From NCBI GenBank assembly GCA_027619975.1, contig JAQCGX010000008.1, positions 8,719-72,718 on the forward strand: a stretch of 64,000 bases of DNA. Reading direction: 5' to 3'. Below are positions 40 through 56,851 of this stretch, in pieces; position 1 is the first letter of the stretch, and the number at the start of each line of letters is the position of its first letter. A model generated the notes under the pieces. That model saw nothing but the letters and a program-made list of their open reading frames with translations, ran no database searches and was not told where the DNA came from. This stretch comes from Nitrospinota bacterium. Its GTDB lineage: Bacteria; Nitrospinota; Nitrospinia; Nitrospinales; VA-1. Position numbers and translations under genes: made by a program.

Positions 40-1173
40 ATGCATCGGACGGATAAAAAATCAAAATTAATAATAATCCTGCTGGTTTTATTGGCTTTCA
101 GCCGCTGGACCGAAGCCCACGCAGAGGAACCGCCGCAATTTCGCAAGGTTTTGCCCGGTTATGAGTATCAATTTCCGCGCGACTATTTTTCTCACGACGA
201 TTTCCGCATCGAATGGTGGTATTACACCGGCAACCTTGAATCTGCCGAGGGCCAGCGCTTTGGCTACCAGGTCACTTTTTTCCGAGTCGGTCTCGAGGGG
301 ACGAAAAAAATCGTCAACCCTTCCGAATGGAAAGTGGATCAGGTCTATTTCGCGCACATGACAGTCTCCGACATCGATGGCAGGAAATTTCATTTCTATG
401 AGCGCATAAATCGCAAGGGGATGAATAACGCCGGAGCCAAATCAGATCGGTTTCTGGTGTGGAACGAAGACTGGGTGCTCACGGAGCGCAATGAGGCGCA
501 TCGCTTGCAAGCCATCGAAGCCGGGACGGGGGTGGATTTAAAACTGATGCCTGGCAAGCCGATGGTTTTTCACGGGGAGGGCGGCATCAGCAGAAAGGGT
601 GAGCGGGCCGGAAACGCCTCGCATTATTTTTCTTATCCGCGCATGCAGACGACTGGAAAAATCTTCATCGCAGGCAAAGAGGTTCAGGTCACTGGAACCA
701 GCTGGATGGATCGGGAATTCTCCAGCGACCCGCTGAACCCGAAACTGGTGGGCTGGGACTGGTTTTCACTGAAACTCGATAACGACACCGAGATCATGCT
801 GTATCAATTGCGCCAGAAGGACGGCGGGGTCGATCCATTTTCCAGCGGGACGCTGATTGCAGCCGATGGCGTTTCCCGTCATCTGCAAAAAGATAAATTC
901 TCGGTCGAAGTCACGGGAGACTGGACCAGTAAAAAAACGCAAACCACTTATCCTGCAGGTTGGATCATCACACTTGCCGATTCTAAAACGCGACTCACCG
1001 TCCAACCGGATTTAGCCGATCAAGAGCTTACCAATTTGCGTTCCATTTCAGGGTCGTACTGGGAAGGCAGTGTTTCCATCGAAGGCACGCTTGAGGGCCA
1101 GCCGGTCAAGGGCAAAGGCTACGTCGAGCTGGTGGGCTACGAAACACCGCTCAAACAGGAATTGCCAGAGTGA
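40..1173 (+). CDS. Secreted AttH/CrtC-like protein (carotenoid 1,2-hydratase / lipocalin-fold hydrolase family)
   Basis: ORF 4..1173. The internal ATG at 40 gives a signal-peptide-like N-terminus (KKSKLIIILLVLLAF..AHA). FRIEWWYYTGNL and SWMDREF motifs fit this family. Start uncertain. Confidence 0.65.
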   Translation: MHRTDKKSKLIIILLVLLAFSRWTEAHAEEPPQFRKVLPGYEYQFPRDYFSHDDFRIEWWYYTGNLESAEGQRFGYQVTFFRVGLEGTKKIVNPSEWKVDQVYFAHMTVSDIDGRKFHFYERINRKGMNNAGAKSDRFLVWNEDWVLTERNEAHRLQAIEAGTGVDLKLMPGKPMVFHGEGGISRKGERAGNASHYFSYPRMQTTGKIFIAGKEVQVTGTSWMDREFSSDPLNPKLVGWDWFSLKLDNDTEIMLYQLRQKDGGVDPFSSGTLIAADGVSRHLQKDKFSVEVTGDWTSKKTQTTYPAGWIITLADSKTRLTVQPDLADQELTNLRSISGSYWEGSVSIEGTLEGQPVKGKGYVELVGYETPLKQELPE

Positions 1174-19259: not shown

Positions 19260-19574
19260 ATGAAAATAAAAGATAAAAACAACCTGGTGTTTGGGATTTT
19301 ATTGATGAGTGCCACCGGCCTTGCGATGGGCTGGGTGGTGGACAGCCCCCTGCTGATGGCGGTGGCCGGAGGTCTTGGAGCCATTATAGGTGGCTTTGTC
19401 GGCTGGCTGGGCGGCAGGCTTTATCTGGTGATCATCTGCTTTGGTGTGCTCTTGGGCGCGTATCTTGGCAAGCTGTCCGGCGACCGGGACATATTGATCA
19501 TGGCCGCCGGAACCGGCGGTGCTATGGCCGGTTTCCTCGGCAACTTTATTACGTTGTTTGTGAGGAAGAGGTAG
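19260..19574 (+). CDS. Small Gly-rich membrane protein
   Basis: 104 aa with three hydrophobic, glycine-zipper-like helices. Confidence 0.45.
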   Translation: MKIKDKNNLVFGILLMSATGLAMGWVVDSPLLMAVAGGLGAIIGGFVGWLGGRLYLVIICFGVLLGAYLGKLSGDRDILIMAAGTGGAMAGFLGNFITLFVRKR

Positions 19575-19694
19575 AAATTCATTAATAGAACCACTATTCT
19601 AAGAATAGCAAATATCCCAAATCACCTAAAAATTTTGAGTTTTATTTAATTTTCTCATTAACCTGAAAAATCCATACAAACTTTTGTGAATATT

Positions 19695-20522
19695 ATGGAA
19701 ACTAAATTTAAATTCAATATATCCAATATTTCTAAAAACCCTTATTTTGGTTTAATTGGAATAATTTTGGGGCTTATAGGAATAATTTTGTCGATATTCT
19801 TTTATGTTGGAAGTAAAAAAGAGTCTGAATTAACCTTTATGGTAAATCCCATTAAGACATCCATTGTTTCTTCTGGAAGGACCTCATCAATAAAGGTTTT
19901 TAACGCGGAAAAAGAAATAACTAATGATGTAACTGCTGTCCAAATTGCCATTTGGAATGGAGGGGCGAAAAGTATTAGAACAAATAATATTTTAGAACCT
20001 ATCGAGATTTACACAGACCCGCCGGTTTCAATAATTGAAGCTACAATCCTTAATACCTCTCGCGAGGTAACTAATTTTCATATCGAGACGGATAAGCTTG
20101 AACAGGGGATTATTAAACTTAAGTGGAAAATTCTAGAACAGAATGATGGAGCAAGCATTCAGATCATATTTATTGGTGCAAAAGATACTAAATTTAACTT
20201 TAGAGGGACAATTGAAGGGCAAGCACAAATTTTTGATTTTATGAATATCAATAATCAAATTATTTATCTAACTTCTCTTATTTATTCAAAAAAACGTTTA
20301 AGGGAAAAAGAGTTTGGTTTGGAAGAATTTAGAACCCTTTGGAAATTATTAACTGGAATGGTATTACTATTATCATTGATACCATTGACTATGGCTATCG
20401 ATAGACACAAACGAAAAAGATATTTCTTTGCTTATGGTTATTTTTTCGGTTTCCTCATAATGCTTTTTTTAGCTTTGGTTTATTGGTTCTTGACTCCCCC
20501 TTACTCTCCTATTCCTTTTTAA
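19695..20522 (+). CDS. Membrane protein of unknown function in a visibly AT-rich segment
   Basis: ORF 19686..20522 (ATG at 19695). One N-terminal TM, a soluble region of about 150 aa, then two C-terminal TM helices separated by HKRKR. Composition contrasts with the flanks. Confidence 0.5.
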   Translation: METKFKFNISNISKNPYFGLIGIILGLIGIILSIFFYVGSKKESELTFMVNPIKTSIVSSGRTSSIKVFNAEKEITNDVTAVQIAIWNGGAKSIRTNNILEPIEIYTDPPVSIIEATILNTSREVTNFHIETDKLEQGIIKLKWKILEQNDGASIQIIFIGAKDTKFNFRGTIEGQAQIFDFMNINNQIIYLTSLIYSKKRLREKEFGLEEFRTLWKLLTGMVLLLSLIPLTMAIDRHKRKRYFFAYGYFFGFLIMLFLALVYWFLTPPYSPIPF

Positions 20523-20850: not shown

Positions 20851-21001
20851 TTCCCCCTCATCCTAACCTTCTCCCCCAGAGGGGAGAAGGAATTATTTTT
20901 TCCTTCATTCTGTCTATCACCCTGTGGGTGCCTCCCAAAAGAGGAAGAAGTGGGTGGTTTGCCCCCTCTCCCTTTTAGGGAGAGGGTTGGGGTGAGGGTT
21001 T
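20851..21001. repeat. Cluster of GC-rich REP-like hairpins
   Basis: 10-bp stem CCTTCTCCCC-CAGA-GGGGAGAAGG (20867-20890) and CCCTCTCCC-TTTTA-GGGAGAGGG. 20961-21001 is identical to 19167-19207. Confidence 0.8.
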
Positions 21002-21054
21002 CAATAAATAGTTCCAGATAGTTTTTGTTCAATAGGTGAGATATTTGGATTGAA

Positions 21055-21276
21055 GGATATCTCTAAAAATTGACTAAACGCTCCTAGTCGTCAACTTAAG
21101 GAGATGGCTTTGTTTCAGTGGGACAGGCGACCTACCCTTAAAGGTTATACGGAAGTGCGGAATTTAATTCCGCCTTTCCAGCCTGTCCGCACGGGCTGGA
21201 AAGCCCGTGCCACCGATATAAGAAATCCTTGTACAATGTTCGATTTCCTGTAATAAACTAATTTTTAGAGATGCCC
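21055..21276 (+). mobile_element. MITE, TIR family 1, full-length core
   Basis: 222 bp. The right TIR is perfect; the left is degenerate (GGATATCTCTAAAAATT). The core at 21118-21213 holds two 8-bp-stem hairpins. No clear TSD. Confidence 0.8.
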
Positions 21277-21674
21277 TTTAGAAAATACGCCCGTTTGAGT
21301 AATTAATAATTTTCTGCTCATCAATTTCTTTCCCACTTTTCTTCAATATTGCTGTTCCGATCAAGAACCCCAATCACCCCATCAACCTTTTGAATTTATT
21401 GATAATTATAAAGAACTCGCTTGACTTCACCCTTCCAAAATTTTTCGCTTCCGGTCCACCAACTGCATTTTATTAATTTTTATTAATGTTGCGTTAATAA
21501 TTTTTTAATTTTCCTTTTTTATAATGGGGTAATTACTTTCTCCTCCTCTCTTTGGAAGGGGTCCTCTACCATTGGACTCCTTCCTTTCTTTCTATCCAAG
21601 GATGAGAAGGACTGGATTAATAATTAAATCGCCATTCTTTTTGGTACATTTTTAATACTTGGTCAGGTGAGATA

Positions 21675-34538: not shown

Positions 34539-35654
34539 ATGACTGAATTTCATCTTTATCACTTTATCTGGCTTGCGAGCGCTGCTTGTGGCGTATGGTT
34601 TTTCCCAATACGCTACCATGCTGACATTATCGCCTCGATAACCGGCCTGTTTTTGATTGTGTTTTCACCCCTGTCTGCTCTCCTGTTATTTACCAGTTCC
34701 TTATTGGTTTACAGGTTAGCGGCATCCAAACACCGGTCTCATCATCTGACGGTTCTGACGGGAGTGATCTATTGCGGGCTCCAGTTTTTTCTAATCAGGG
34801 GCTTACAGCTTTACCAATATAATCTTGGGGTACAAATTCCTACCGTAATGGGATTAGCCTATTACACCTGTCGGCATATTCATTATATTATTGAAGTTTT
34901 CCAAGGCAATATTAAGCCTGATTTTCGCCAATACCTGCGTTACCAGTTTTTTCTACCTGCGATGTTGGCTGGCCCTATCCACCGATATGCTAATTTTCAG
35001 CGCCAAAGTAGCCGTCGCCGTTTAGATAAGAAGCAAATATCCAACGCCCTGGAAAGGATCCTCTATGGGTACGTTAAGATTGTTGTGCTGGGTAATTATT
35101 TTATTGCCTGGGAAGTCGAACTCAGGAGGGTGGCGCTCGATTTGAACGGCTTTATGACCCTTTGGCTCGAATCCGTTCAAGGTTGGATTTATTTGTACTT
35201 TCAGTTCAGTGGGTGGACGGATGTTGCTATCGGCTTTGCGCTGTTGATGGGGTTCCGCCTGGAAGAAAACTTTAATTGGCCCATTCGTGCCGTGAACCTA
35301 ATGGACTTTTGGAGACGCTGGCATATGACGTTGTCCGCCTGGTGTCGGGATTACGTTTTCACTCCCACTATGGCGGCAACCCGCAAACCGTCTATATCCG
35401 TAGGTGCCGCTATGGTTGCCATGGGGCTCTGGCACGAACTGTCACTGGCCTATATCCTCTGGGGAATCTATCACGCTCTGGGCATTGCTTTTGCGCAGAG
35501 ATTTATTGTTTTGGTTAGAAATTACAATTTCCTACAGCTGTTAACGAGTTCCAGAGCCTGGACACCCGTTGCGCGGGTTCTGACCTTTAACTTTATTGTT
35601 ATGGGGGGGCCCGTTGTTACTTGGGTTAAATTATGGATGGGGATTCCATCATGA
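34539..35654 (+). CDS. MBOAT-family membrane O-acyltransferase (AlgI/DltB-like)
   Basis: 371 aa, multi-TM, with FWRRWHMTLSAWCRDYVF and GLWHE (conserved His). Confidence 0.75.
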   Translation: MTEFHLYHFIWLASAACGVWFFPIRYHADIIASITGLFLIVFSPLSALLLFTSSLLVYRLAASKHRSHHLTVLTGVIYCGLQFFLIRGLQLYQYNLGVQIPTVMGLAYYTCRHIHYIIEVFQGNIKPDFRQYLRYQFFLPAMLAGPIHRYANFQRQSSRRRLDKKQISNALERILYGYVKIVVLGNYFIAWEVELRRVALDLNGFMTLWLESVQGWIYLYFQFSGWTDVAIGFALLMGFRLEENFNWPIRAVNLMDFWRRWHMTLSAWCRDYVFTPTMAATRKPSISVGAAMVAMGLWHELSLAYILWGIYHALGIAFAQRFIVLVRNYNFLQLLTSSRAWTPVARVLTFNFIVMGGPVVTWVKLWMGIPS

Positions 35655-35887: not shown

Positions 35888-35964
35888 TGGTAGCGGCGCA
35901 GGGACTTGAACCCCGGACCTCACGGATATGAGCCGTACGCTCTAACCAGCTGAGCTACACCGCC
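35888..35964 (-). tRNA. tRNA with anticodon CAU (elongator Met, or Ile2 if lysidine-modified)
   Basis: The reverse complement folds as a cloverleaf: GGCGGTG acceptor, GCTC/GAGC D stem, TACGG-CTCATAT-CCGTG anticodon arm, GTTCAAGT T loop, encoded CCA. It lacks initiator features. Confidence 0.85.
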
Positions 35965-37691: not shown

Positions 37692-38240
37692 ATGGACGAA
37701 GCAATAGACCAAACAATTCGCTTTGAAGAGGGCAAACTTTGTCCCGTAAAAATAGAGGGAGACGGCGGCGGGCTGTCCTTCTCTCCTAACGGAGACATGC
37801 TGTTGATTGGCAGGTTTCCCAATCCGTCAAAAGCGCAGATTGAAGCGTGGGGCGGCAAGTGGCGGGCCAAGCTGTGCACGGAGTCGGAGTTTCCCTCCAT
37901 CCCCATATTCGCCGTCGGCAGTGAGGACTGGATTCTGGAAGCCCCCTGCAACCCATCCGAACTGGAAAAGGAAGCGCCTGGTTTCTGCGAGGCGCTCTAC
38001 GCCAAGGAAGATCATGAAATGGTGGCCATCCTGGTCGATTCGATGACCAACATGATCGTCAAGATCAAGACGGTACCTCTAGATGAGATGTTCATCGAGC
38101 GGCTGGTAATGTCGTGGAATCCGTTTCGCGGCCCGGCGGATCAATACAACAAAACCTTCACCTTCGAGACGTTCAGTGAGCGCATCGGCAATATATTCAA
38201 AACCCGCTCGCAGAAAGATATCTGGGTGAGTTCTTGGTAG
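37692..38240 (+). CDS. Hypothetical protein
   Basis: ORF 37617..38240, with ATG at 37692 preferred. No family recognised. Confidence 0.4.
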   Translation: MDEAIDQTIRFEEGKLCPVKIEGDGGGLSFSPNGDMLLIGRFPNPSKAQIEAWGGKWRAKLCTESEFPSIPIFAVGSEDWILEAPCNPSELEKEAPGFCEALYAKEDHEMVAILVDSMTNMIVKIKTVPLDEMFIERLVMSWNPFRGPADQYNKTFTFETFSERIGNIFKTRSQKDIWVSSW

Positions 38241-38485
38241 GTGTGAAGTAATGAATTTGAAACAGAACTGCGGTGAAGTGTTTCAGATTTGGAGGAAACT
38301 GGAAGGGCGGACCCCCTTGAATCCCGCATAAGACCGTTTCTCAGGGTCAGAATTTGAACCAGAATTGGCCATTCTGTTTCAGGAGGGGTTTTCGGGTAAT
38401 ATAATTTGGATGGTACAGTCCAAAGGAATGAAAGCTGGATTTTGGGTATTATGCTGATCCAAACTAATAATATTAGACCTTAATT

Positions 38486-39082
38486 ATGACCCCCAAACAA
38501 ATACATATTTATACGGAAGAAACGTATATCCACACACAACTGGCATTGTCGAATTATCAGACATTTAGAAATATCATTGATAATCATGAGTCTCGGCAAA
38601 GCCGAGAAGCGTGGATGTTTCTACAGAGTTTCCTGTCACATTTTGGGATGGTATCGAAACTTCTTTATGCTCCCAGCGGAAGTCAACGAGCAAAGGATCG
38701 TGCTCAAGAATTAAGAAATCATCTAAAAACTGATGAAACCAGTGCACTAAATAATAGAGATGCTAGAAATGCTGTTGAGCACCTAGATGAAAGAATGGAT
38801 AACTGGCTAAATGCAAGTGCAAGTCATAAAGGCATATTAGAGGGTGTATTTGAAGACGAACAAGCTTTTGCTTTCCTCTATTCTTTCGATAGTTAGATTG
38901 TTCGTCGAGTTTTTGTCCTAGCTGAGTCACTGTTTATAACGGAAGGAAAAGATGGTCCTAAAAAAATGGAAATCCAACCATTAATTGAAGAGCTAAGTAG
39001 GCTTTATGATTTGTGTCATGAAAAACTAAAAACGGAAAACCCTTACCACATGATCTTGCCAAATCGGAACCAACAAAGGTAA
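38486..39082 (+). pseudogene. HEPN-like (R-x4-H) ORF interrupted by an in-frame TAG
   Basis: ORF 38486..38896 contains RDARNAVEHLDE. The frame stays open for 61 more codons after the TAG at 38894-38896, in an AT-rich region. Confidence 0.45.
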
Positions 39083-39254: not shown

Positions 39255-39542
39255 TTAAAATTGTTTTTCGGGGTCTTCCCGTCCCAAAATTCGAACGATA
39301 ACAATTTCTTCGGGATCAATGCGGTAATAAATCGAATGTGAACCGCACACGCTACGGCGGTAGCCTTTGTGAATGTGGTCAACAGCGGGATAAAGGAGCG
39401 GAGTTTTGGCCAGCACATTAAATCGATGTTTGAGTTGGTCGCGGTACCTGTCGGATTGAACAATGCCGAAATGCTCATCTCCATATTGTGCGATCGCTAT
39501 CAAGTCTTCTTTTGCGGCTTCGGAAAGCCGATAATCAGGCAT
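39255..39542 (-). CDS. parE: ParE/RelE-family toxin
   Basis: Start at M15 (MPDYRLSEAAKEDL) and an 8-nt overlap with the antitoxin. The YRRSVCGSHSIYYRI..IVIVRILG C-terminus is typical of ParE. Confidence 0.85.
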   Translation of the reverse strand: MPDYRLSEAAKEDLIAIAQYGDEHFGIVQSDRYRDQLKHRFNVLAKTPLLYPAVDHIHKGYRRSVCGSHSIYYRIDPEEIVIVRILGREDPEKQF

Positions 39543-39801
39543 GTTTCGATCGGTGGCGTTGTCTGGCTTCTTGCCATATCTCATCTACAGTGCGATCACT
39601 AAAACCACTCCGCTCACCCTCAATCAACGCCTTGCGGATTGCCTCGATCTCGGCGGGGGTTTCCTGCTCGCGAATTTGCCGCTCGCGGATCAACTCCCGG
39701 ACAACTTCGCTTTCATTGCCGAAATGGCCGGATTCAATTTGCGCCTTGATCCAGCTGTCTTGTTGGTTTGTGATGGATATGCTTTTTTTGACCATTGGCA
39801 T
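39535..39801 (-). CDS. parD: ParD (RHH/CopG-type) antitoxin
   Basis: 88 aa with KSISITNQQDSWIKAQIESGHFGNESEVVRELIR, typical of ParD. Confidence 0.85.
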   Translation of the reverse strand: MPMVKKSISITNQQDSWIKAQIESGHFGNESEVVRELIRERQIREQETPAEIEAIRKALIEGERSGFSDRTVDEIWQEARQRHRSKHA

Positions 39802-39899: not shown

Positions 39900-41090
39900 C
39901 TACTTCTCATACTCTTCATCGCCTAAGTCTTCTTCCTCGTCCACTTCGACGATTTCCTCGATCTCTTCAAACTCTTCCTCATCCTCCTCATCCTCCTCCT
40001 CGATCTCTTCGCGCTCGAATTCAGGGTATTCCAGTTTGGTGAGAAATTCGGATTCGCCCAATGCATAAAACCCGTCATCGGTGTATTCGTTGCCCTCGAT
40101 ATAAACCCGAAGCAGGTTGCTCATGAGTTCTGATTCGGCGATGGCGATCAATCCGTCATCGGTGACGCCACTGGTCTCGATCATCAACATTTCCAGGTTT
40201 CTGAATACGTCCGAATTAGCGATTAATTTAACGCCTTCATCGCCGATGGGATTGCGGTCGAGAGAAATCAGGGTGAGGTTGTTTAGATACGGCGATTCGG
40301 TCAGATGGCGAATGCCTTCTGCTGTGATACGGTTCAGCTCCAGATAAAGCTTGGTCAGGTTTGCCAGATCCTCGCAATGGCTGATGGCCTTGCATTCCAA
40401 GTCGCCGATTCCGATCTTACTGAGATCGAGCACCGTTTTATCTTCATTCAAGTGGTGACGCAGACGGTTGATGATGAGAAACTCCGAAAACGCATTTTTG
40501 CCTATTTCAGTGAGGGGGTTGTCGGACGAGTCGATGGATTGCAGACTGCTGAACTCTTTGCTCTTGGCAAATTCCAAAGCGCCCTGGTCGGTGATCCCGT
40601 TCTTTCTAATATCCAGATATTCAAGTTTTGAAAGTTGGGTCGATGCCGCCAGATGTTTAAGACCTTCATCACCGATCTTATTTTCAGCCAGGCTCAAGGT
40701 AGTGAGTGATTTTAGATTTGTAGATTCCGCAATGTGCCGTGCGCCTTCGGGGCCGATTTCGTTCCACGCCAGTCTGAGGGAGTTGAGGCTGGGCAACCTT
40801 TCAGACTCGCAAAGGTATTTGACGCCCTCGTCGCCGATTTTATTTTTGTACAGCTTGAGCGATTGCAGGTTGCCAAGGTAATCCGCGGCTCCCAGGCACT
40901 GCGCGGCTTCAGCGCTCAGCTTGTTGCCGCTTATTGTCAGCCGGGTGACTTGCCGGACCGATTTTGATTTGGACAGCGCCTGAACTCCTGAATCGCCCAA
41001 TTTGATAAAATTAAAATCAAGGATTTCGTAATCCCGGCTCAGTTTAAAACCGTTGCGAATAATTCCTTCTATGTTGTAAAACTTTTTCAT
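39900..41090 (-). CDS. Leucine-rich repeat protein, ribonuclease-inhibitor (RNI)-type repeats, acidic C-terminal tail
   Basis: 396 aa. About a dozen ~28-aa repeats of the LxxLxLxxNxIGDEGxxxLAxS type. The last ~45 aa are almost all E/D. Confidence 0.8.
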   Translation of the reverse strand: MKKFYNIEGIIRNGFKLSRDYEILDFNFIKLGDSGVQALSKSKSVRQVTRLTISGNKLSAEAAQCLGAADYLGNLQSLKLYKNKIGDEGVKYLCESERLPSLNSLRLAWNEIGPEGARHIAESTNLKSLTTLSLAENKIGDEGLKHLAASTQLSKLEYLDIRKNGITDQGALEFAKSKEFSSLQSIDSSDNPLTEIGKNAFSEFLIINRLRHHLNEDKTVLDLSKIGIGDLECKAISHCEDLANLTKLYLELNRITAEGIRHLTESPYLNNLTLISLDRNPIGDEGVKLIANSDVFRNLEMLMIETSGVTDDGLIAIAESELMSNLLRVYIEGNEYTDDGFYALGESEFLTKLEYPEFEREEIEEEDEEDEEEFEEIEEIVEVDEEEDLGDEEYEK

Positions 41091-55973: not shown

Positions 55974-56462
55974 TTAAATCGTGGTTTTTGGTAAGGATTT
56001 GGTTAATTCGGGAGTAGCTTCTTTATATTTATCCAGATTCGGCATGGTACCAGGATGCATTTTTCCGGCTTCCTTTTCGGCCTCATATTTCGACGGGCAA
56101 CTGGTCAACAGCGTATTCGCATGAAACACACCATCCTTGGCCAGCGTTCCCTCGACCACCACTTCCTGACCATCCTTGAACATGTCTGGAATGATTCCCT
56201 CGTAAACAACATCTAGATTGGATTTTTTGTCCTCAATGGAGAAATTAACTTTCAAAAAATTTTCCGTGTCTCTGGCAATGGAGCCGGCAACCACATTTCC
56301 CTTTACTTTCAGTCCGGTGCCAGCATATGAAACCTTCTGGCTCATCAATTCATCCACCGTAAAAAAGTACTGCGACGTGGTGCTGATCCCCATAGTGATA
56401 AGATACCCTACTGCAAACACGATCAAACCACTACCTATCACAAATTTGGCCTTTTTCGGCAT
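55974..56462 (-). CDS. ccmE: Heme chaperone CcmE, CxxxY variant
   Basis: Start at M9 (MPKKAKFVIG). N-terminal anchor and OB-fold region. LTSCPSKYEAE sits where canonical CcmE has HxxxY. Confidence 0.8.
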   Translation of the reverse strand: MPKKAKFVIGSGLIVFAVGYLITMGISTTSQYFFTVDELMSQKVSYAGTGLKVKGNVVAGSIARDTENFLKVNFSIEDKKSNLDVVYEGIIPDMFKDGQEVVVEGTLAKDGVFHANTLLTSCPSKYEAEKEAGKMHPGTMPNLDKYKEATPELTKSLPKTTI

Positions 56463-56851
56463 AATAAAATTTTTCCCAACTATCACAAAATAAAGAAAAT
56501 ATAATGACTTAATACCTAAATACTATCATTCACAATTTGCGCTTGTCAAAGCAATTCCATTTTATTCAATGCGGTGATCTTGCCATAAATGGGCAAAAAA
56601 AACTCTACTACAATAAAGAAATGAATTTTCTCTCTGCTCAAAAAATTACCGTTGAAATTCCGCCACTTTCAATCTTCACCGGAAACCACTCGCCAATACA
56701 ATTCACTTAAAGTGTAAATCAAACAACCTGCAATCTATTTTTCCTTCCTGACAAGACTTCCCTCGGTATCCGCAAACCTAAATATTTAAAGGGTTTTATT
56801 GAAATCTGTTTTTTTCAATAAGTTAAACGTAAATCTAACGTTCCTTTTCTA

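Follow-up and report, generated by a model that had tools for sequence, protein, structure and literature searches.

Locus and open frame

The stretch of DNA analysed here, referred to as the window, comprises 64,000 nucleotides (nt) of contig JAQCGX010000008.1 from a Nitrospinota bacterium. On its forward strand, at 38486-39082, it carries an open reading frame (ORF) that is interrupted by a single in-frame TAG. Translation gave 136 residues, the TAG, 61 further sense codons and a TAA at 39080-39082. The translated product contains NNRDARNAVEHLDERMD, and its residues 94-99 read R-N-A-V-E-H. An earlier note on this DNA, made from the letters alone, had described this arrangement next to a parDE module and had interpreted it as a recently inactivated gene for a HEPN-like RNase of the toxin or abortive-infection type, or else as a two-part or read-through arrangement. 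The described frame, with its motif, its single stop and its open continuation, was borne out by translation. So was the view that the continuation is improbable by chance: the stop chance is 0.072 per codon at local base composition, giving P ~0.011 for 61 open codons. The remaining five frames of the 597-nt gene hold 5-21 stops each.

The gene also lies in an AT-rich patch, as had been described. Its guanine-plus-cytosine (GC) content is 0.379 vs 0.482 for the window, and only 4% of 600-nt segments are equally low, which suggests horizontal acquisition. Other stretches of the window (19400-20300, 21000-21500 and 56100-56800) are far more AT-rich, with GC down to 0.31.

Two alleles in a marine Nitrospinota population

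The joined sequence retrieved an intact protein of 198 amino acids (aa), P0001, which equals the joined product of the window except for Trp at position 137. The gene for this protein was found on 23 contigs. In ten sister loci from metagenomes (L001-L010), one base of the 597 nt differs: position 38895 is G in all ten (TGG, Trp137) and A in the window (TAG). Gene order in these loci is the same as in the window, with 99.86% identity across 12.6 kb. The exact 136-aa product was present on six contigs from separate assemblies, including ENA ERZ23495042 and JGI 3300004369, and it is also the product of the NCBI entries MDA0691084.1 and MDA1108796.1, from metagenome-assembled genomes (MAGs) labelled Nitrospinae/Nitrospinota. 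Two loci with the TAG allele (L011, L012) matched the window at 99.99%. The two haplotypes are told apart by 18 fixed differences in 12.6 kb, and the base that creates the stop (W137*) is linked to the other 17.

The stop is a G-to-A transition that changed TGG (Trp137) into TAG. TGG is the ancestral state, since position 137 is Trp in 27 of 33 close homologues. Because both alleles occur in several independent metagenome assemblies, the TAG is genuine and segregates as an allele; an error does not explain it. The polymorphism is also recent, as no other change has accumulated in the 597 nt and the 186 nt past the stop are undecayed. The interval 38486-39082 is one 198-codon gene, broken by a nonsense mutation in this strain lineage, and the split ORF is an ordinary case of an accessory gene that a point mutation has recently turned into a pseudogene, segregating among marine Nitrospinota of one population. 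On this point the earlier note was right: the gene of about 198 aa that it had supposed to be recently inactivated exists in intact form, as P0001, and the homologues without the stop that it had suggested looking for include further proteins of 187-195 aa.

The loss of such genes is common. Two other lineages, represented by a Lentibacter and a Pacificibacter MAG, carry in-frame stops of their own (Table 1), and these are the sole internal-stop cases among 113 loci. The locus of P. marinus F2R14 (L038), which is related to the Pacificibacter locus, is intact.

A second difference between the two Nitrospinota haplotypes is potentially disruptive. At 35603, within ORF 34539-35654 (+), the window haplotype has an extra G relative to the sister haplotype, and this MBOAT-family ORF is therefore 371 aa long in the window haplotype and 410 aa in the sister haplotype. 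The Pfam MBOAT domain stops at about residue 350 in both, so the difference is confined to the C-terminal tail. W137* and this extra G are the two potentially disruptive changes among the 18.

Table 1. Coordinates of the features discussed (window positions, unless a locus or protein residues are named)
Feature	Position	Strand	Remark
5' part of broken gene, 136 sense codons and premature TAG	38486..38896	+	identical to P0001 residues 1-136
R94-N95-A-V-E98-H99 codons (R-x4-H motif)	38765..38782	+	R94/H99 invariant in family alignments
Premature stop TAG, W137*	38894..38896	+	variant base 38895: A here, G in sister loci
3' remnant, 61 sense codons and original TAA	38897..39082	+	same as intact allele, no decay
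Hairpin CCUGACA...UGUCAGG and U-run just past TAA	39101..39150	+	dG -18.5 kcal/mol, z -1.26, not significant
parE	39255-39542	-	Pfam ParE_toxin 4.5e-14
parD	39535-39801	-	Pfam ParD_antitoxin 2e-11
Family gene with in-frame stop, Lentibacter MAG	L029:5001-5594		after ...RRVYL, ~residue 147
Family gene with in-frame stop, Pacificibacter MAG	L036:5001-5585		equivalent of W43
Context: HEPN_AbiU2 gene 84 bp upstream of a family member, same strand	L025:4351-4917		AbiU2 188 aa, motif R112-N...H118, Pfam-confirmed
Context: family member P0040 between SNF2/NOV_C helicase (1,142 aa) and DUF1156 (987 aa)/DUF499 (980 aa)	L026:1565-10573; L027		gaps 8 and 26 bp
Predicted helices	residues 3-31, 40-61, 67-79, 91-98, 100-111		AlphaFold2
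Predicted strand, then helix	residues 116-122, then 125-131		AlphaFold2
Predicted strands	residues 137-144, 149-154, 157-162		AlphaFold2
Predicted last helix	residues 164-183		AlphaFold2

Family size, distribution and conservation

In a clustered protein collection, 54 relatives of the joined 198-aa sequence were found, most of them 187-195 aa long and covering 93-98% of it. The earlier note had allowed that homologues might end where the TAG lies, with unrelated sequence beyond. This is not the case: because homologues span both halves and residues in the second half are conserved, the alignments place the 61 codons past the TAG within the protein. In an alignment of 33 close relatives, Q47, F49, L50, S57, K58, R72, R91, R94, N95, E98, H99, D101, R103 and W107 are invariant, and R140, R141, V142, G157, L170 and C177 are near-invariant past the stop position. 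In the 48 diverse members strict invariance is limited to R94 and H99, while E12 (46 of 48), L50, S57, K58, R72, R91, E98, D101, E102, W107 and R141 (44 of 48) are kept in at least 90%. Residue 95 is N in 43 of these members and D in the other five. Mean pairwise identity is 0.30 for residues 1-136 vs 0.22 for residues 137-198.

A profile search of 1.84 billion cluster representatives, with clusters formed at 50% identity, returned 2,491 representatives at E<=1e-3 and 1,007 at <=1e-10, the more distant matches mostly aligning to about profile positions 1-115 only. The pattern EHxDE[RK][LIF][DEH]xW led to 258 confirmed loci in species-representative genomes of many phyla, including Pseudomonadota, cyanobacteria, Bacteroidota, Streptomyces, Bacillus, Chloroflexota, Planctomycetota, Thermosipho and Thermoplasmata archaea, and to 20 viral contigs in IMG/VR. 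Relatives are carried on plasmids of Alteromonas, Enterobacter and Bacillus cereus, with conjugative plasmids among the carriers. Gene 33 of two Gordonia phages, ZiggyZoo and Samba, encodes a relative, and in ZiggyZoo a serine integrase is found a few genes away from it.

The 136-aa and joined 198-aa sequences gave only sub-threshold Pfam matches (Peptidase_C10, SCAN, Tli4_N). Searches of the 48 diverse members against Pfam, NCBIfam, PHROGs and PADLOC produced no recurrent match, with isolated weak hits in PADLOC only; single hits of this kind were to Cas13-ApeA (0.006) and CARF_HEPN (0.019). Another sub-threshold PADLOC lead, NsnC, was rejected: its N-terminal region is an inactive PIN (alpha/beta) domain (PMC12065111), and the corresponding region here is predicted to be all-helical. 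In every case seen, the source name of a family member was 'hypothetical protein'. The family to which the gene belongs is very large and unannotated. Its proteins, of about 180-200 residues, have a patchy distribution over bacterial and archaeal phyla, temperate phages and plasmids, and the family appears to be uncurated and uncharacterised.

Predicted structure

AlphaFold2, supplied with the 33-sequence alignment, predicted a single compact unit with a mean predicted local distance difference test score of 89.4 and a predicted template modelling (TM) score of 0.85. In this model five helices are followed by a strand and a short helix, three further strands and a final long helix (Table 1), and H99 is located at the break between the fourth and the fifth helix. 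W137* would delete the three strands and the final helix, including the near-invariant R141. A Foldseek search of BFVD with the model found one real relative, an uncharacterised 188-aa protein of the Gordonia phage Madeline (E 2.6e-6, TM 0.68/0.72).

Genomic contexts of the relatives

Three ORFs per side were compared for 100 family loci (533 ORFs, all-against-all BLAST). No conserved partner or antitoxin gene was found in these loci, and the diverse loci inspected at first also had no common neighbour. The sole recurrent neighbour cluster was seen in eight loci, with variable position and strand; to judge by its size and the Pfam census, it probably consists of integrases. One family gene was present per locus in every locus. 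A Walker-A ATPase was considered as a partner and rejected, being adjacent in only three of the 100 loci. There was also no adjacent MNT gene or other conserved antitoxin in the 100 loci, and the gap upstream of the gene narrows to 8 bp in L026, too little for an RNA antitoxin to fit. Such 8-bp gaps, together with the lack of an Rfam hit and of an upstream tandem repeat, argue against a protein or RNA antitoxin.

In 37 genome loci with 148 neighbours, the Pfam families assigned most often were ABC/SMC-type ATPases (5) and phage integrases (4), and PADLOC most often hit the defence ATPase components mad3, HEC-01A, AriA, AbiLi and GajA (ABC/OLD-type). This census is purely descriptive, and many other neighbours are housekeeping genes. 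Individual relatives were located on an element that also encodes relaxases, an integrase and a resolvase; among IS91, integrases and a group II intron; at a prophage end, beside a tape-measure gene; and between integrases, with DUF2326/SMEK_N genes. One lies close to a HEPN_AbiU2 gene, and another (P0040) is inserted with minimal gaps among large helicase and DUF genes (Table 1). The latter locus looks like a restriction-modification-like defence operon with the family gene as an embedded passenger or accessory. Family contexts are typical of mobile and conflict-system DNA, and the genes often lie within mobile elements or defence loci.

The parDE module of the window had been placed beside the broken gene by the earlier note, and this part stands: parE and parD are both intact, confirmed by Pfam, and the broken gene converges on them. 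ParDE was not found beside other family members, so the adjacency is incidental and parDE is context only, not a partner.

Comparison with known systems

The closest counterpart in description is HepS (STM14_3211) of the Salmonella prophage Gifsy-1 (PDB 9OIJ/9OIK), a helical protein with R100-N101...H105 and no partner gene. It is harmless until triggered: its inactive tetramer is opened by a phage tail-tip protein and then cuts tRNA anticodon loops. The trigger is bound by regions outside the HEPN core, and the N- and C-terminal tails are disordered until it binds (PMC13043305). The family resembles HepS in being a single protein of about 200 residues with R-x4-H near residue 100 (here R94-N95...H99), in lacking a conserved partner or antitoxin, in its carriage by prophages and mobile elements and in its spread over distant phyla. 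Like HepS it is encoded by a stand-alone gene with no neighbour at a fixed position, found in prophages, integrative elements, plasmids and phages. It differs in its predicted ordered internal beta-sheet (116-162) and C-terminal helix. No homology to HepS was detected in PDB searches with hidden Markov models (HMMs; E<=10) or among the best 50 Foldseek matches, the presence of 9OIJ in these collections being unconfirmed. HepS was compared by its published description. In the LT2 Gifsy-1 record there was no ORF with R100/H105, and two candidates for the HepS gene were unrelated.

Solo abortive-infection (Abi) proteins with a HEPN domain (HEPN_AbiU2, PF18734; AbiV; Abi_2/AbiD-F; ApeA; PMC3710099) share with the family their small size, stand-alone genes, location on mobile elements or defence islands and an invariant R-x4-6-H with a polar residue after the R. 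The AlphaFold2 model of AbiU2 shows a long first helix, a long second helix, a short insert helix and the motif helix in a similar order. The predicted beta-sheet module has no counterpart in the AbiU2 model, and profile comparison, described below, does not link the two.

Butters gp57r is a stand-alone defence protein expressed from a prophage, non-toxic alone, with RDRCAH at residues 94-99; its HEPN assignment was based on the motif and weak HHpred hits (bioRxiv 10.1101/2023.01.03.522681). It is likewise about 190 aa long, with R-x4-H at the same residue numbers. On inspection its sequence reads ...VKKLRDRCAHSARI... and lacks the signature SKLL...R..RN..EH.DER.D.W, and Butters was not found in a tblastn search of 50,697 phage records with P0001. 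It was rejected as a family member; the motif numbering is the same and the sequence family is different.

HepT/MntA pairs (HEPN/MNT, type VII) invite comparison in that a putative R-x4-6-H RNase toxin lies beside a toxin-antitoxin locus in the window. The Pfam model of HepT (DUF86) gave no match, and, as described above, MNT genes are absent next to family members. A type II or type VII toxin-antitoxin arrangement would include a conserved co-oriented antitoxin gene, which the family lacks, and ParDE is a self-contained, unrelated pair, complete in itself. By analogy, the locus comes closest to HepS and to solo HEPN proteins of the Abi type (AbiU2, AbiV, ApeA), yet it is no demonstrable member of those families.

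A candidate HEPN-like defence RNase

Accounts of the HEPN superfamily describe an up-down bundle of four helices, in which an insert between helices 2 and 3 and a kink in helix 4 are frequent. The R-x4-6-H motif is found where helix 3 ends or the next loop begins, a polar residue, typically N, D or H, comes right after the conserved R, and an upstream acidic residue is often conserved, in helix 2 when present. HEPN RNases cut without a metal, at a composite active site that dimerisation creates (PMC3710099). In the present family the motif has x4 spacing, R94 and H99 do not vary in either the close (33) or the diverse (48) set, and N or D follows the R. The predicted helix order is compatible with HEPN: the third helix is short, and the motif falls where a helix breaks. 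The near-invariant acidic E12 sits in predicted helix 1, not helix 2.

We hypothesize, with a probability of about 0.55, that the gene encodes a stand-alone HEPN-like abortive-infection or defence RNase that was recently inactivated by the nonsense mutation in this lineage. The intact protein would probably be an RNase that is harmless until activated by a phage-derived signal. Its N-terminal helical domain would be the catalytic part, with R-N-x3-H at the helix break supported by the near-invariant E12, K58, R72, R91, E98, D101, E102 and R103, and the less conserved C-terminal beta-sheet and helix may, by analogy with HepS, form the regulatory or trigger-sensing part. By removing this C-terminal module, R141 and possibly a core helix, W137* most likely produces a non-functional protein and would be a null allele. 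The outcome would be the loss of a costly accessory defence gene from this lineage.

Several results weigh against this hypothesis. The earlier note had named a search against the HEPN clan as the check on its label, and by that check the label was not confirmed: Pfam HEPN-clan models gave 0 matches in the 48 diverse members even at E<=10. Comparison of the family profile with a HEPN_AbiU2 profile in hhalign gave a probability of 0.2%, and the comparison with HEPN_AbiU2 as a single sequence was also negative. This profile-profile test was limited to the one family, AbiU2, whose profile comprised 10 Pfam-confirmed sequences and was built from the gene adjoining the family member in locus L025. 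Two family HMMs searched against all PDB sequences at E<=10 yielded chance matches only (AP-2 beta, ATP synthase b), and the best 50 Foldseek matches in the PDB were exclusively generic or designed helical bundles (best E 0.24). The model places the motif midway along a kinked helix, with a beta-sheet after it, and neither feature is textbook HEPN. PADLOC gave 0 hits on the neighbours in the window, where the gene lies outside a recognised defence island. Finally, the predicted motif-bearing domain is retained in the truncated 136-aa product, which may still be active.

The family might, alternatively, not be a HEPN RNase at all. The protein could then be a helical-plus-beta regulator or binding protein on mobile elements, in which R-x4-H, a short pattern, is coincidental; the locus would be nonsense-broken all the same. 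We consider this somewhat unlikely. It accounts for the negative outcome of every homology test against HEPN families, for the lack of a structural match to a solved HEPN and for the unusual placement of the motif in the model. Against it, R94 and H99 are the sole strictly invariant positions in 48 members, N or D follows the R, and the near-invariance of several charged residues around the motif speaks for an active site, not for a structural role. The mobile and defence settings of the family are usual for solo HEPN Abi proteins. The Foldseek result is without weight, because a bona fide HEPN_AbiU2 protein modelled likewise was equally left without a HEPN structure, and sequence links between HEPN families are typically undetectable (PMC3710099). 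Profile-level homology to an established HEPN family had HHpred probabilities of 75-98% in the defining study. The HEPN claim of the earlier note is only partly supported, by the invariant motif, the polar residue after the R and a compatible order of predicted helices, and not by membership in any HEPN family tested by Pfam, PADLOC or hhalign. The label is plausible but unproven, with the motif and the predicted helix order as its basis.

With regard to the effect of the stop on the candidate RNase, the 136-aa product might alternatively be functional, as a deregulated variant or one of altered specificity, and not null. The stop lies beyond the conserved N-terminal domain, the region shared with most distant relatives and the more conserved of the two parts, and the allele persists in several samples. 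We regard this as improbable. The C-terminal part is confidently predicted in the same compact unit, whose 20-residue final helix may belong to the core, R141 is widely kept, and none of the full-length members seen ended near residue 136. Selection would act against a constitutively active RNase, and the stops at W43 and ~147 in the two other lineages have the look of ordinary decay.

Programmed read-through or a two-part gene, the other possibility raised by the earlier note, would have the TAG decoded by a suppressor tRNA, as pyrrolysine or by leaky termination, or would have the halves work separately. The downstream frame is intact, and in the TAG haplotype a gene caller predicted a 38-codon ORF there that starts with ATG (38966-39082). 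Low-level natural UAG read-through may occur, but as an account of the locus this proposal is very improbable: none of the ten sister loci and no homologue has the stop, Trp being the ancestral residue, and no split versions were found in the 113 family loci save for the two with stops elsewhere. TAG is an ordinary stop here, terminating five of the window's 33 open frames that reach 250 codons or more, and no suppressor tRNA was found in the 64 kb, where tRNA-Met is the sole tRNA gene. A sequencing or assembly error in a gene that is intact in the organism can be dismissed; the difference is a single base and MAG consensus sequences do carry errors, but the same base occurs in six contigs from different assemblies and pipelines and travels with 17 further differences that mark the haplotype across 12.6 kb.

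The family itself is a useful result, as it is large, scattered and borne by mobile elements, has an invariant R-N-x3-H and has no entry in the curated libraries searched. The natural pair of intact and W137* alleles, one base apart, would offer a clean comparison. A broader proposal, which we hold tentatively and at somewhat less than even odds, is that the family, which numbers at least 2,491 clusters at 50% identity and is found in bacteria and archaea as well as on temperate phages and plasmids, is an undescribed, very widespread family of stand-alone HEPN-like immune RNases. Its members would combine a conserved catalytic N-domain, with the signature given above, and a fast-evolving C-terminal sensor module. 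If so, present defence annotation misses the family, as no Pfam, NCBIfam, PADLOC or PHROGs model covers it, and W137*, which deletes exactly the putative sensor module, would be a ready-made separation-of-function variant. If it acts as an effector of the solo HEPN type, as HepS, AbiU2 and ApeA do, it would bring a common, now invisible component into defence annotation and would be a compact one-gene candidate for experiments. Should the HEPN reading hold, it would be a new family within a known kind of system.

Other features around the broken gene

The neighbours of the broken gene in the window are a 182-aa hypothetical protein, a metallo-beta-lactamase-fold protein, ParDE, a leucine-rich-repeat protein and a hydrolase. 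The start of parE is ambiguous (39535-39584, -): gene callers give 109 or 95 aa, and the shorter start leaves an 8-nt overlap with parD. In L003 and L012, which are otherwise identical, parE was uncalled, which is gene-caller noise and not a sequence change. The hairpin with a U-run between the converging genes (Table 1) is a possible shared terminator, on weak evidence; a scan for promoter and terminator consensus found no excess over shuffled expectation and no terminator.

The tRNA-Met gene lies at 35888-35964 (-), about 2.5 kb upstream of the broken gene. No integrase was seen near it, and a role as an integration site is without evidence.

The 182-aa ORF immediately upstream of the broken gene (37692-38240, +) has a GC content of 0.53. 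It had no Pfam or PADLOC match and no similarity to neighbours of other family members.

Beyond parD, at 39900-41090 (-), lies the gene for the leucine-rich-repeat protein (396 aa; LRR_6, 6.7e-33), which has a strongly acidic C-terminal tail, EEIEEEDEEDEEEFEEIEE... Such a protein is unusual in a free-living marine bacterium.

The 245-nt spacer upstream of the broken gene had no Rfam hit and no tandem array, just an 18-nt direct repeat in two copies, 97 nt apart, at 38253-38270 and 38350-38367 (GAATTTGAAACAGAACTG / GAATTTGAACCAGAATTG). The upstream space at other family loci, 8-97 bp, is too small to make this repeat a feature of the family. After each copy comes an element, ...TGTTTCAG..., that is able to pair back, and the repeat could be an operator or a terminator of the upstream gene.

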